Assembly (NCBI GenBank): GCA_051362555.1
Contig: CM120644.1
Span: forward strand, 3,542,954 to 3,606,953
Reading direction: 5' to 3'
DNA: 64,000 nt
Source of the DNA: Lingula anatina
Taxonomy: Eukaryota > Animalia > Brachiopoda
Position numbers and translations under genes: made by a program. Under the pieces are notes generated by a model. It was not told the DNA's origin. It made no database searches and saw only the letters and a program-made list of their open reading frames with translations. How positions within the stretch are numbered: the first letter of the stretch is position 1; the number at the start of each line of letters is the position of its first letter. Positions 5,343 to 42,399 of this stretch are shown here, in pieces.

Positions 5343-7163
5343 TTATAGGACTAAGATAAAAACTTACAAAATACATACAGCTATTTAATCAAATTGTCAG
5401 TTTGAAATCATCAATCCTAATTACACGGCATTTATTTGAATTAGTTAATAAGTAAATGGCAATTTGTCTAAGGTTCTCTTATTTACAATCCCAAGTTTCT
5501 GACCCTTTCAATCCTCTAAATAAAACTATAAGACTCACCGGTACAATGTATTCCGTCCCCAATGTAAGGATAATTACATTCACATTGGTTGCCATAATCC
5601 CAATTGCATGCCTCATTACTCCAAGGCAGCTTTATCCAGCCTCCCTTGACGCATGTGGCATTTTCCCCACACTTCGCTGTAAACAAGGTAATTAAAAAAT
5701 GTAACAGGGCAACTGCGCAGGCAAAAATCATACACACGCTAGCTTTTAATAAATTTAAGCAGGGTCATCGTATGGCTTGCATTGTTTACATGATAACAGT
5801 TATCATTTGAAATATGTTACACATACATGCAACGTCGGTATTAAAGTTGAAGTCTGATCCCCGTTTGCGTTATGGTAGTAGCAATGCTAGAGGATAAATG
5901 CTACTAAATGGACCATATTAGCTGGGGCAAATGATCGTATTTTTCAGTAATCTTTCTTTCCATTATTTTTCATATTACAACCAAAAACCATTTGGTGTTA
6001 TCTACATTATTAACCAATAGCCGATATCAAGTCTTTAACAGGCAAATGATACCTATCTGGTCGAGTAGATCAAGTAGGAATCTCATAGGACCAGTTGTTG
6101 TGCATTTTATATTTTGAAATATGTCACTTGTAAATGTATCATCGGTATTAAAAATAAACTCTGCTTCCAGTTTCCTTTTTGGAAGGAACATTGGTAGTGG
6201 ATGAATGCTACTAAGTGAAGCATATCAACTAGTTGATAGTAACTGATAGTATTGTCGCATGTGTCAGTTGTATTTTTCCCTCTTCCCATTTTATGACCTA
6301 GAACTATTTGTTGTTATCAACATTCTTTAACCAATAGCCAACTATTCAGTCTTTAACAGGCGAAGCTTACCTATCTGGCATCTGAGTCCGGAATATCCAA
6401 AGGGACAGAGACACTGATAACGTCCATTTCCCTGATTAACACACGTCCCATTATAAAGACAAGGGTTGGTGTCGCATATATCTTAAAAGAAATGTTGCAT
6501 AATTAACCTTTAAGGGCTAGACAATTCTACTTTCTCAGTTTGTATAGCTAATATGAAATTAAATTATTTACTTCACTTCCCCCTAGATAATGTACTTTGT
6601 AATTGTTACCTTACATTTTATGTACAGACACACTGTGAAAATACGCTTGATCCATTTGCCCCACACGTAAAAACAATTGATTTAAAAAGAAAGCAAAGGA
6701 TACCAACTGTTCGTTTTGGACAAAAACAGATTTTTAGGGTGTCGACAATTTGCCCATACTTGCCAATCGTTAATCAATCCATCCTGATATACAAAGTAAG
6801 TGTATGTTTTTTCTAAGAAGTTCTCTTTTTGTTATAATCTCTCAGGATGTCATCGCAGTGGTATAGCCATCTATGAAGGTACACGTGATCTAATGGCAAG
6901 CAAAGCTTCCAGAATAATTGCGACAATTGTGAAATTGGTGGCAAAATGGAAATTAATATATTTTGTACAACAAATATAATATGAAATATGAATCTCATAC
7001 GAACAGTTGTTTTCCTTTTAATCATTTAAAATACACCAATAGTCCTCTCATAAAATTAGAATTTTGACTTGCCGAATCAACCTTGCTACTTACATTCTGC
7101 AAACGATCCACACGCCCACACCATAAGCCCCAAAACGAGAAGGCACCAGAGCAACGATTTCAT
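5343..7163 (-). CDS. Secreted two-EGF-domain protein, copy 1 (4 coding exons: 7094-7163, 6371-6481, 5539-5676, 5343-5350; 108 aa)
   Basis: Manual splicing gives [108 protein letters not shown]. All introns are GT..AG and phase 1 (donors gtaagt, gtaagc, gtgagt). Hydrophobic signal peptide followed by two 6-Cys EGF-like modules. Confidence 0.85.
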
Positions 7164-7290
7164 CACTAATTAGTTGTATTACACCTCGTTCTTTATACGT
7201 CTATGCTGGAATCAAACTAGTATCAACCAACATGAGCAAATGTTAAAAGATGAAAAATTGTTAAAAAGGAATCATATATAAAGTTCAGAT
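7164..7290 (-). promoter_or_regulatory. Conserved region 5' of the leader exon (TATAAAG about 30 nt before ATG; alternatively a 5'UTR acceptor tttgattccag)
   Basis: Near-identical to 42400-42520 upstream of the second leader; both carry GTATAAAGAACGAGG. Promoter versus acceptor cannot be resolved from sequence alone. Confidence 0.35.
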
Positions 7291-7344
7291 TATATAATAT
7301 AATATATTAACCAATGAATTGAACAGCGGCAGAAATACAGCTCT

Positions 7345-38590: not shown

Positions 38591-40291
38591 TTATAAGACG
38601 TATAACATAAACTTATAAAGGACATACAACTATTTAATCAAATTGTCAGTTTGAAATCTCCAATCCTAATTACAAGGCATTTATTTGAAATAGTTAATAA
38701 ATGAATTGCAAATTTGTCTGAGTTTCTCTTATTCACAATCCCAAGTTTCTGACCCTTTCAATCCTCTGAATAAAACTATAAGACTCACCTTTGGTACAAT
38801 GTATTCCATCCCCAAAGTAACCATAGTTACATACACATTGGGCGCCATTATCCCAATTGCATGGCTCATTATACCGAGGTAGACCTGGCCAGCTTCTATA
38901 GACGCATGAGGCATTTCCCCCACACTGCGCTGTAAACAAGGTAATGAAAAATGACAACATGTAACAGGGCATCTGCGCATGCTTTTAAGCTTTTAATAAA
39001 CTTAAAACGGATCATCATATGGCTTGCTCTATTTACATGATAACAGTTATCATTTGAAGTATGTTACACGTACATGTAACTTCGGTATTAAAGGGGAAGT
39101 CTGATCCACGTTTGCGTTATGGTAGTAGCGGTTCTAATAGAAAAATGCTACTAAATGAACCATATCAACTGGGAGAATTGATCGTATAATTTCGGTAATC
39201 TTTCTTTCCATTATTTCCCATATTACAATTAAGACATATTTGGTTTTATCTACATTCTTGCCGAATAATCAGGTATCAATTCTTTAACAGACAAAGGTTA
39301 CCTATCTGGTCAAGTAAATCACGTGAAGTAGGAATCTCATACGAGCAGTTGTTATGCATTTTATAATCTGAAATATGTTACTTGTAAATGTATCATTTGT
39401 ATTAAAGGGAAATTCTGCTTCTAGTTTCCTTTATGGAAGGAACATTGGCAATGGATGAATGCTACTAAGTGAAGCATATCAGCTAGTTCACCTGATAGTA
39501 TTGTCACTTTTGTCAGTTGTATTTTTTCCATCTTCCCACATTAAGACCTAGAACTATTTGTTGTTATCAATATTCTTTAATTAATAGCCAACTATTCAGT
39601 CTTAAACGGGTGAAACTTGCCTATCTGGCATCTGAGTCCAGAATATCCATGCGGACAGAGACACTGATAACGTCCATTTCCCTGATAAACACATGTCCCA
39701 TCATGAAGGCAAGGGTTGGTGTAGCATACGGCTTAAAATAAATAGTGCATAATTAACCCATAACAGGTTAGACAATTCATCTCTCCCAGTTTGCATAGCT
39801 AATATGTATTAAATTATTCATTTCACTTCCCCCTGTACTTTGCAATTGTTACCTAACATTTAATATACAGACACACTGTTAAAATACGATTGATCATTTG
39901 CCCCACACGCCAAAACAATTTAATAAATAAAAGCATGTAACTTAACATCTGCCCACGTCAAAATTCCTCACACTATCTTTAAAACAATTTAACCAGGGTC
40001 TTCATATTGCTTACATGATATTACTTGAAAGGATACGAGCTGTTCGTTTTGGACAAAAGTGGATTTTTAGGGTGTTGACGATTTGCCCATACATGCCAAT
40101 CGTTAATCAATCCATCCCGATATACAAAGTAAATGTATGTTTTTTTCTATGAAGTTCTTTTTTTGTACTAATCTCTCAGCATTTTATTGCAGTGGTATAG
40201 CCATCTACACGTGGTCTGACGGCAGGCAAAGATTCCAGAATAATTGCAACAATTGTGAAATTGGTGACAAAGTGGCATTTATTATATTTAA

Positions 40292-40355
<64 letters not shown>

Positions 40356-42399
40356 TATTATTATTATTATTATTATTATTATTTATAGTCTAAAATCAAT
40401 ATACATGGGTAAAATGAACAGAATCAGATTACTAAAATAAATGAAAAGGTAGTTAAAATAATAAGATATGAACTAAAGATGTGAACTAAAATATAATTGA
40501 ATTGATAAGATACACACTTGACATTTAATATGGAATATTTTTTTCCAAATCATTTTTCATCAGTTTTTTCCTATTTTGTTGACTGATACATGAAAACAAG
40601 AATTAAAATCGTGTTTTAATAACTTTGAATTATCTCTTTGATGTCATTTTGACATCAGTTCATAAATGGAATTCGCCAGAGAAGTAAACAAAAACACATT
40701 GCCTATTCTATGTCATACGACAACCATAAAGAGAGATATTTTGGATCTCCATATTTTCCAAATTATCGTCTGTAAAAGAGTTACACGCTCCACAAAGGTT
40801 CCTCATGTCAGTGTCTAGTCACAGTAATGGTTGCTGTTACACCTGACTTCTTCTGGCTGCTACCAGCGCTCTCAAGTGACAAGGCATTCCTTGGGTTAGG
40901 TTTTTAGAGTTCAATCATGAATAACATTCCAGGCATCGGTCAAAATCTGTCCAATTTGGTCCAGATTTGTTGTAGGACATATAGACCATTGATTTGGCGA
41001 GTAATGGCCTACCCACATATTGTCTATGTGGTTCAAAAATGGCGATTTTGATGACCAAGGTAGCTGCTTATTCCCTTAGTTCACTACGTAATCTGCTATT
41101 AAAAGTGCTCTGTGTGAACCGGCAATCTCACCACACAACCTAAAATTGTTCCTAAGGTGCCCCCTATCAAATGATAGTCAAGTGGTTCCCAGATTATTCC
41201 TTTATTTGATCTGGTTCAGGTTTTCGTCGATGACTACCATTGGTGTTTTGGCACCAATGTGGTATCCACTCCAAATACTGACGCTGTTAATGATCTTAGT
41301 CACTTTAGACGCCGCACACGCTTCGTCGTTGGCCTCTTCTGGATGTTTGTAAACTCTGTTTTGACTAATTGAGCGGTACAGGTGAAATCTGACCTCAATA
41401 AATAAAGCCACGAGGTTTCAGTGTTCAACCCAGAAACAGTCAAGGTCCCCAGCTCATGAGAGAAACATACAACGATGTTTTGCTGTTTACAGTGGGTTCC
41501 TCGGAGGTCGTCTGGAATTTTAACCTGCTAAAACCAGTTTGGTGTTCGATAAGGGCCTTGAAAATGCGTTTTAGTGGCAATTTACCCCTCATTCTGAACG
41601 GACTGGGTGGTTTTTGTTTAGTTGCAACAGCATATGCAGAAAGACAGTGGGTCCTGTGCCCTGGTGGTAAGATATCGATACATTGGGTGTGGCCTCTGTG
41701 TATAGGTATATCAGTCTGGGCATTACTCTATAAAACTGTGCGGACCGTTTCTTTTGGCGCGATTATCTGTCTGGCAATGTCGGACTTTTTCGCGCCATTC
41801 TGTCACAGATTAAGAAATTTGTAAAGCATTGCATAGCTCATTTTACACACTGCAAACCCGACCACTTCCATGCAAAATTTCAAATTCTTCTGTGCAGTAG
41901 TTGCCGACATATGGATACTTTTTTGACAGAACCATGCTTTGCCAAAGCCAAGCTTTGACCAGCCCAAAGGAGCACTACCCACATGAATCACTGCATATTA
42001 CATAATGCAGCAGCGCAGTTAATTGGAAACGACACACCTGACTACACACTTCTCTATTCACATATCTTATATGAGATCGGACTTTTTTTGAAAAAAGAAT
42101 GCATTTTTACCTAGGCATACCTTCGAAACTGAAATATTCCATATTAAATGTCAAGTCTGTATAAAAACTAAACTGTACAGTGTAAAATATATTTCTGTGA
42201 GTTGTGAACAACAAATGTAATGTGAAATGTGAATCTCATACGAACAGTTGTTTTCCTTTTAATCTTTTGAAATACATCAAAACCCCAAACATTAGAATTT
42301 TGACCTGCTGAATCAAGCCTGCTACTTACCTTCTTGAAACGGGTCACACGCCCACACCATAAGTCCCAAATCGAGGAGGCACCAGAACAACAATTTCAT
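38591..42399 (-). CDS. Secreted EGF-domain protein, copy 4 (leader 42330-42399, EGF-A 39621-39731, possible 66-nt exon 39302-39367, EGF-B 38789-38929; terminal exon uncertain)
   Basis: [60 protein letters not shown]...[47 protein letters not shown]. The EGF-A donor is GC (AG|gcaagt); the acceptor of the paralogous stop exon reads CG at 38599-38600 instead of AG. Confidence 0.7.
40293..40384. repeat. Compound (ACT)n(AAT)n(ATT)n microsatellite
   Basis: Direct reading. Confidence 0.95.
40513..42159. mobile_element. Full-length non-autonomous Tc1/mariner-type element in intron 1 of EGF copy 4
   Basis: 28-bp TIRs CACACTTGACATTTAATATGGAATATTT / AAATATTCCATATTAAATGTCAAGTCTG (1 mismatch), TA on both sides; no transposase ORF. 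Confidence 0.8.

Follow-up and report, generated by a model that had tools for sequence, protein, structure and literature searches.

A candidate fast-evolving EGF module with predicted altered disulfide wiring in two putative secreted-protein genes of the brachiopod Lingula anatina

What kind of protein keeps a strict frame of six cysteines while the residues between them change more than the surrounding DNA? The question is raised by a 64,000-nt stretch of the Lingula anatina genome (assembly GCA_051362555.1, contig CM120644.1, positions 3,542,954 to 3,606,953, forward strand; hereafter the window), which carries repeated exons for epidermal growth factor (EGF) domains between positions 5343 and 42399. 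A preliminary description, made from the sequence alone, proposed a tandem family of small secreted EGF proteins with a hypervariable second domain. Six-frame and splice-site analysis of the window identified twelve minus-strand exons: two encode signal peptides (SP), four a canonical EGF (A), four a long-loop EGF-like module (B) and two, E5 and E6, further EGF domains. As discussed below, these exons are most simply read as two predicted secreted-protein genes, Y and X, in which B has diverged under positive selection.

The four B exons are located at 5539..5676 (B1, gene Y, 138 nt), 25565..25705 (B2, gene X, 141 nt), 30582..30716 (B3, gene X, 135 nt) and 38789..38929 (B4, gene X, 141 nt). 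Lengths and loops agree with the preliminary description, and so do the six identical Cys codons, CNWD and GDG shared by all four. At the intron C/T rate, the identity of the Cys codons is at chance level (P = 0.46), and it was rejected as a signal. The Cys columns are invariant in 12 of 12 cases (P = 0.001 at the intron rate). All four B-exon indels are in frame, as had been claimed, and among 33 intron indel events 30 have a length that is not divisible by 3; the exons carry no frameshift, against about 9 expected. The frame is thus under purifying selection.

Between these cysteines the picture is different in B and A. Codon site models, written for this analysis and distinct from codeml, were applied to the four B sequences of 45 codons. 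Comparison of M1a with M2a gave twice the log-likelihood difference (2dL) as 22.3, with a nonsynonymous-to-synonymous ratio (omega) of 9.9 on 34% of the sites, while the A exons gave 2dL 1.0 and no selection signal. The B signal was robust to F3x4 codon frequencies (29.9), to the comparison of M8a with M8 (22.3), to a multi-nucleotide mutation term (18.8) and to three realignments (22.5-25.9), and a value of 22.2 was reached in 0 of 78 null simulations. Moreover, 48 of 135 B columns vary compared with 196 of 782 intron columns (Fisher p = 0.015), so that the proposed contrast between exon and intron is also borne out. Pairwise counts by the Nei-Gojobori method (NG86) give proportions of nonsynonymous and synonymous differences (pN and pS) of 0.22-0.31 and 0.09-0.24 in B, beside intron differences of 0.10-0.20, and the four modules are 52-64% identical to each other. 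For copies 1 and 2, the earlier hand count of 17 amino-acid differences (over 45 aligned codons), one codon indel and 2 purely synonymous codons was recovered; the synonymous change amounts to 4.0 steps by NG86, and the adjoining intron, estimated at roughly 90% identity, measures 86-88%. These results support positive selection on B, with amino-acid change beyond that of neutral DNA, as the preliminary description had proposed for the second domain.

The long loop does vary as described, but the selected sites are not confined to it. Removal of 11 loop columns leaves 2dL at 11.3-17.9, and the loop region alone gives 5.95. Sites with a posterior above 0.9 are found at alignment columns 4, 7, 11, 15, 16, 19, 30 and 35; half of these columns are outside the long loop, and the selected sites thus extend across the whole domain. 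The signal exons provide one pair for comparison, in which 6 of 23 residues differ, with 7.5 nonsynonymous steps over 53 sites and 2.5 synonymous steps over 16 (pN 0.14 and pS 0.16); signal-exon divergence appears to be about neutral.

B is also unusual as an EGF. Its spacing, C-5-C-(13-15)-C-7(9)-C-1-C-10-C with a GDG-type end, is shared with a family of Lingula proteins (see below), and each B carries 6-8 aromatic residues. None of the four B exons matches PF00008, and against EGF_3 (PF12947) they score 17.5-21.8 bits (cut-off 28.5) over the C-terminal half only. An AlphaFold2 model of B from nine sequences has a predicted local distance difference test score (pLDDT) of 74.7, lowest in the loop, with strands 6-10 and 29-33 paired; a four-sequence model (pLDDT 54.7) was discarded. 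Among the VIA structural matches listed, 12 of 13 are EGF-containing chains, the best with Z 3.6 (root-mean-square deviation 2.4, 34 aligned). B queries in a sequence search of the PDB gave chance-level rows only.

How, then, could the six cysteines be paired? The B model (residues 1-46) aligns with MSP1-19 residues 11-43, with 32 residues matched and the first Cys on Cys12. We take Cys12 and Cys28 of MSP1-19 to be the second and fourth cysteines of its EGF. Cys12 bonds Cys28 (PMC1868954). In addition, for 10 of 12 modules the segment between the first two cysteines has a positive score on a profile of canonical Cys2-Cys3 segments, and it resembles SANAT, the consensus of this segment in a set of 48 canonical EGFs. 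Together, register and likeness suggest that B probably starts at EGF Cys2, with Cys1 lost and a new cysteine gained in the main hairpin loop. The predicted disulfides are 1-4, 2-3 and 5-6 instead of the 1-3, 2-4 and 5-6 of EGF, and the new disulfide is predicted to close the aromatic-rich variable loop of 13-15 residues. For NELL1, the part of PMC7083938 that was available gives no cysteine numbers. An N-glycan sequon, and Ser/Thr at the place that corresponds to a Thr of the A exons (see below), are present in B1, B2 and B4 and lost in B3.

The B module was next found in other proteins of the same species. A B-exon profile searched against 1.84 billion cluster representatives gave 15 matches; five covered the whole module, all of them Lingula anatina RefSeq proteins, and the other ten covered the GDG half only. 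A second search (6 matches of 297 candidates) added two more Lingula clusters. The total is 11 Lingula anatina records from about 9 genes (XP_013421256, XP_013409006, XP_013385403, XP_013390330, XP_013418649-51, XP_013389479, XP_013382190, XP_013418876 and XP_013386451). The preliminary description could assign no named family, and this still holds, given that whole-module matches are to automatically named Lingula anatina proteins only. The names (jagged, crumbs, stabilin, delta, adhesive plaque protein) vary between records, as is usual with best-hit labels. The non-canonical character of B, with its shifted cysteine pattern, and the presence of this unnamed family in Lingula anatina are points beyond that description.

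Most of these records have a signal peptide and one or two canonical EGFs, followed by B with the same cysteine spacing; repeats within one chain also occur (A-B-A in P0023, A-A-B-A-A in P0027). No membrane anchor was found in the relatives' sequences, and no collagen Pfam match in those scanned. The B modules of the window are 29-54% identical to those of the relatives, and the signal peptides show little sequence likeness, with 5 of 14 comparisons below the 5% level of shuffles. The B-module tree is not resolved, with 0 starred branches and the window copies together at 47/93. Pairs of records can differ mostly in B: P0025 and P0027 differ at 1 of 78 positions in A and 10 of 32 in B (P0025 is cut short inside B), and P0003 and P0004 at 14 of 47 in one B. 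In the isoforms P0003 and P0017 the tails can be read as a spliced versus a read-through ending after the last B, and P0016 can be read as having skipped an A. Searches of the protein collection did not return the window's own exons, a word-based search of the four B exons against longer proteins gave 0 matches in 373 candidates, and P0010 as query retrieved itself only. In Atlas, P0010 falls in generic EGF clusters under 0.9, and B1 is absent there. The family has so far been seen only in Lingula and is apparently undescribed: no description of family or module was found in a mainly open-access literature, which included few EGF supplement entries, so that an earlier mention is possible, and a literature search on six of the accessions returned no paper.

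How many genes does the window contain? Four separate small genes had been proposed. Only two signal exons are present, SP1 (7163-7094, minus strand; gene Y) and SP4 (42399-42330, minus strand; gene X; 86% identity with SP1), both of 70 nt with 23 codons and a phase-1 donor. They were assigned from exon order and hydrophobic core, with a canonical EGF then following ahead of B. A nucleotide search of the window with both signal exons and their flanks gave no third one, either intact or decayed, and this includes the regions ahead of cassettes 2 and 3; profile scans of the window gave no eleventh EGF exon. Acceptor and donor are intact in all ten EGF exons, each of phase 1-1. Since the signal exons number only two and one of them serves three cassettes, the simplest reading is two predicted genes, not four: Y, SP-A-B at 7163-5539, and X, SP-(A-B)x3-EGF-EGF at 42399-22277. 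In addition, every B ends in a phase-1 donor, and two further EGF exons lie at 23001-22882 and 22387-22277. The secreted EGF-type architecture itself is supported by exon layout, Pfam and hydrophobic core.

In gene Y, SP1 is followed by A1 (6371..6481; PF00008 35.9 bits) and B1, giving 319 nt of exon and 113 residues including read-through, rather than the 108-residue product proposed before. In gene X the order is SP-A4-B4-A3-B3-A2-B2-E5-E6, with 1057 nt and about 369 residues if all are joined. A4 (39621..39731) scores 42.9 bits against the PF00008 cut-off of 21.5; A3 (31379..31495) has a 2-codon insertion and, like A2 (26130..26240), is without a signal exon of its own. E5 (22882..23001; 28.6 bits) and E6 (22277..22387), the last recognisable exon, are older A-like canonical EGFs. 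All six A and E exons exceed the cut-off (28.6-42.9 bits).

Some further features of these exons can be mentioned here. The A4 donor (39620-39615, minus strand) is GCAAGT, compared with GTAAGC in the other A exons. The two changes look compensatory for a GC-AG intron, and the rest of the site matches the consensus perfectly. Both signal exons encode a Cys near the likely cleavage site (7112-7110 and 42348-42346, minus strand), so that an unpaired cysteine might remain and serve in dimer formation. In A1, A2 and A4 (6479-6372, 26238-26131 and 39729-39622, minus strand) a Thr precedes the third cysteine, at what we take to be the O-fucose consensus position.

Self-comparison of the window indicates how the cluster arose. 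Homology between copies 1 and 4 extends upstream, through the first intron and a long way downstream; for copies 2 and 3 it is limited to the A-B pair, some 170-230 nt before it and a few hundred bases after it. X and Y are whole-gene duplicates, with the A-B exon pair further duplicated inside X. Decayed A-exon 3′ ends with donor flank are present inside the A-B introns (31114-31094, 6060-6045 and 39309-39294, minus strand) and are what remains of exon duplications that took place earlier. At its left edge (122-233) the window is similar to 26409-26519, just upstream of A2; because of this shared stretch, the cluster may continue beyond position 1.

The region behind each B is of interest for the transcript ends. 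The donor at the end of each B exon is GTGAGT, in phase 1, and AATAAA follows about 100 nt downstream in all four copies, while the read-through stop varies by copy. Behind B1 the conserved segment (5390..5538, minus strand) holds a 7-codon read-through frame and AATAAA at 5436-5431, and behind B4 (38640..38788, minus strand) an 18-codon frame and AATAAA at 38685-38680; the corresponding signals downstream of B2 and B3 are at 25469-25464 and 30478-30473. E6 likewise has a donor, a 17-codon read-through and AATAAA at 22188-22183. In the 150 nt behind B, 23 of 150 positions vary compared with 138 of 527 in other intron (p = 0.006), for a window chosen after inspection, which lessens its weight. 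The conserved 150 nt and the AATAAA behind every B fit optional termination, and suggest that each B can end a transcript.

RNA data were taken from four of nine listed runs (listed by species label only), with 6-30% of each read, for 22150-33150. This stretch covers six of the twelve exons, from A3 to E6 of gene X. Coverage fell on repeats only, with few reads 99% alike. A short palindromic repeat at 32920-33150 (arms 32933-33045 and 33059-33171) reached hundreds-fold depth on both strands, from other genomic copies; it is probably a miniature inverted-repeat transposable element common in transcripts.

What might such proteins do? Because B changes faster than neutral DNA, it likely binds a fast-changing partner, and because the divergence is among copies within one genome, it would suit varied outside targets, which favours defence. 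We tentatively prefer, at somewhat less than an even chance, the reading that X and Y encode A-B secreted proteins with variant binding surfaces directed against an external partner that itself changes fast, for example a microbe or parasite, in defence or non-self recognition. In this scenario, A would be a fairly ordinary carrier or spacer domain and B a disulfide-stapled display module, and duplication of the A-B pair would build a repertoire of variant binding surfaces. After each B, the transcript would be spliced to the next exon or terminate at the AATAAA that lies about 100 nt further on. Gene X would then give a nested series of products that hold one, two or three different B modules and reach up to about 369 residues, and gene Y one product of about 113 residues. 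The weakest part of the proposal is that the partner would be non-self and expression narrow or induced. The arms-race ligand of the preliminary description is likewise a function that we infer. A bolder version, which we consider doubtful, is a brachiopod diversity-display scaffold: a permuted-disulfide EGF that staples a hypervariable loop would sit in terminal cassettes between which a single shared signal exon could switch (SP joined to A4-B4, to A3-B3 or to A2-B2, every one of them having a separate poly(A) site), and would provide an antibody-like secreted recognition repertoire.

Several observations weigh against this proposal. Nothing links the proteins to defence. RNA depth is zero in the E6, B2, B3 and A3 bins and 0-0.22 at E5 in the four runs, and no splice joint was seen among the 15 rows listed (39 further rows exist). 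SP4 has an Asp inside its hydrophobic core. Four sequences of 45 codons are few, NG86 is significant in only one of six pairs (p < 0.05, kappa 2), and two misspecified nulls gave 2dL values of up to 13.9 and 12.1 and exceeded 5.99 in 12 of 51 runs; nominal p-values are therefore too small and the loop-free result is borderline. Concerning the wiring, the disulfide pairing comes from the alignment register, not from coordinates; the Cys1-Cys2 control profile was built on 2 sequences only; the Pfam local alignment places the region of B's third Cys on EGF Cys3, the other register; structural scores are low (best Z 3.6); and Foldseek gave no match to B at E<=0.001. Among the relatives, the second B of P0003 and P0004 is identical (0/44), P0010 and P0018 show the reverse pattern (6/53 in the A region, 0/50 in B), and the (A-B)x3 alternation occurs in no Lingula B-containing record.

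Alternatively, B could belong to gamete-recognition or self/non-self fertilisation proteins of the egg coat or sperm, driven by sexual selection. Polymorphic EGF repeats are candidate recognition elements in ascidian HrVC70/HaVC80 and nemertean NeZPL6 (PMC11673550), the lack of reads in the four runs fits a gonad-limited gene, and P0025 and P0027 could be alleles. However, those gamete proteins carry a zona pellucida (ZP) module, and the NeZPL ones a transmembrane region as well, while no convincing ZP or anchor exon was found among 17 + 7 candidate acceptors in the window (gene Y could run on beyond it) and the Lingula relatives are without both features. Moreover, the divergence described here is among paralogues and repeats of one genome. 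We regard this explanation as unlikely, though worth keeping in mind.

The name of P0010 and P0018 in RefSeq, "adhesive plaque matrix protein 2", raises the possibility that these are adhesive or shell/extracellular-matrix proteins in which B diversifies for surface chemistry. The family alignment matches PVFP-5 (7qab, E 4e-5), B carries its 6-8 aromatic residues, and the shell matrix of Lingula is rich in EGF domains (PMC4595640). The PVFP-5 match is, however, limited to the canonical A domain, RefSeq names are inconsistent between records, and an omega near 10 would be unexpected for a bulk matrix protein. In addition, the terms adhesive plaque, jagged and crumbs are absent from the PMC13425148 supplement, and the six frames of the window contain no Gly-X-Y run of 4 or more triplets. 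We judge a matrix role to be rather improbable. Fusion to collagen was rejected on the same lack of Gly-X-Y runs and on the relatives' lack of a collagen Pfam match.

Could the replacement excess instead be a small-sample artefact among silent or relaxed internal duplicates, with gene conversion making the introns look young? Cassettes 2 and 3 are without a signal exon and without reads in the RNA stretch, SP4 has its Asp and A4 its GC donor, and site patterns are mixed along the alignment. Against this, the six cysteines, the frame and the splice sites are kept in all ten EGF exons, and the observed statistic was not reached in the 78 null simulations. Furthermore, pS in B (0.09-0.24) is about equal to intron divergence (0.10-0.20), so the introns have not been selectively homogenised. 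We see little chance that this accounts for the data, and plain pseudogene decay was rejected.

Two further proposals are each very improbable. Defensive toxins or feeding deterrents with conotoxin-like evolution would, like X and Y, be small, secreted, disulfide-rich, duplicated and positively selected, and EGF-fold toxins are known in sea anemones; the conotoxin-like pattern suggested in the preliminary description fails in that the signal exon is about neutral and not unusually conserved and Cys-codon identity is at chance, and there is neither a pro-region in the exon layout nor a toxin among the sequence matches. Endogenous signalling ligands or decoys, in which A docks on a conserved receptor of the EGF type while B adjusts the specificity, would agree with the last nine A residues being identical in all four copies, including the Arg before the sixth Cys, presumably the EGF-receptor-ligand motif, yet this Arg varies among the Lingula relatives and an own, conserved receptor would leave an omega near 10 in B unexplained.

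Other elements in the window are mobile-element remnants. A LINE-type retrotransposon in two frames (27700-29405, plus strand; RVT_1 E 1e-33) lies in the B3-A2 intron on the strand opposite to gene X. A remnant of gag-pol from a long terminal repeat (LTR) retrotransposon (55601-58325, minus strand) consists of four separate frames, with reverse transcriptase and RNase H domains confirmed. Two overlapping frames at 16451-17066 (plus strand) have no Pfam match; by eye they resemble what we take to be a broken Polinton-type packaging ATPase. A Tc1/mariner-type transposase fragment (PF01498) is present at 63332-63700 (plus strand).

Returning to defence or non-self recognition by variant B surfaces, what would follow if the proposal is correct? 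B would be a lineage-specific EGF variant with disulfide wiring unlike the textbook fold, and its loop, tolerating free substitution and indels, a natural small binding scaffold. The family would be the first candidate for rapidly evolving recognition in brachiopods, none having been found described for the phylum in the literature searched. At least nine Lingula genes, whose automatic names are at present unrelated, would be united in one family, and their function could then be assigned from Lingula tissue RNA data that already exist.

Finally, how do these genes compare with known systems? The genes of conotoxin superfamilies are duplicated, encode a disulfide frame and evolve with an omega far above 1 in the part for the mature peptide. 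The window genes are alike in duplication, disulfide frame and positive selection on the mature region, but they encode multi-domain chains without a specially conserved signal exon or a pro-region. Mussel foot proteins (PVFP-5, PDB 7qab; mfp-2) have a similar small, secreted, tandem-EGF and tyrosine-rich layout and match in the A domain, but the match stops short of B. The Lingula shell matrix itself contains EGF-collagen proteins, and the part of PMC4595640 consulted makes no mention of the B family. The EGF-ZP gamete coats (HrVC70/HaVC80, NeZPL6) are alike in their tandem or paired EGFs with loop variation, but they possess a ZP module and canonical EGFs, and neither ZP nor anchor was found here. 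EGF loop variation has been proposed as a source of specificity in these coats, and a loop indel in NeZPL6 differs between species (PMC11673550). The nidogen- and NELL-type EGFs of the EGF_3 type (PF12947; PDB 6pol, 1gl4 and 1yo8) share with B the C-x-x-N-A-x-C start and the C-x-C...GDG-x-x-C end, and 32-34 residues of B superpose on them at 1.9-2.4 A; B differs from this type in being without the Cys1 segment and in having about 14 extra residues and a new cysteine in the hairpin. The closest likeness is to the Lingula family itself, in which a signal peptide and EGF are followed by a long-loop EGF with the same B spacing, GDG end and variable loop, in repeated units and with alternative tails.

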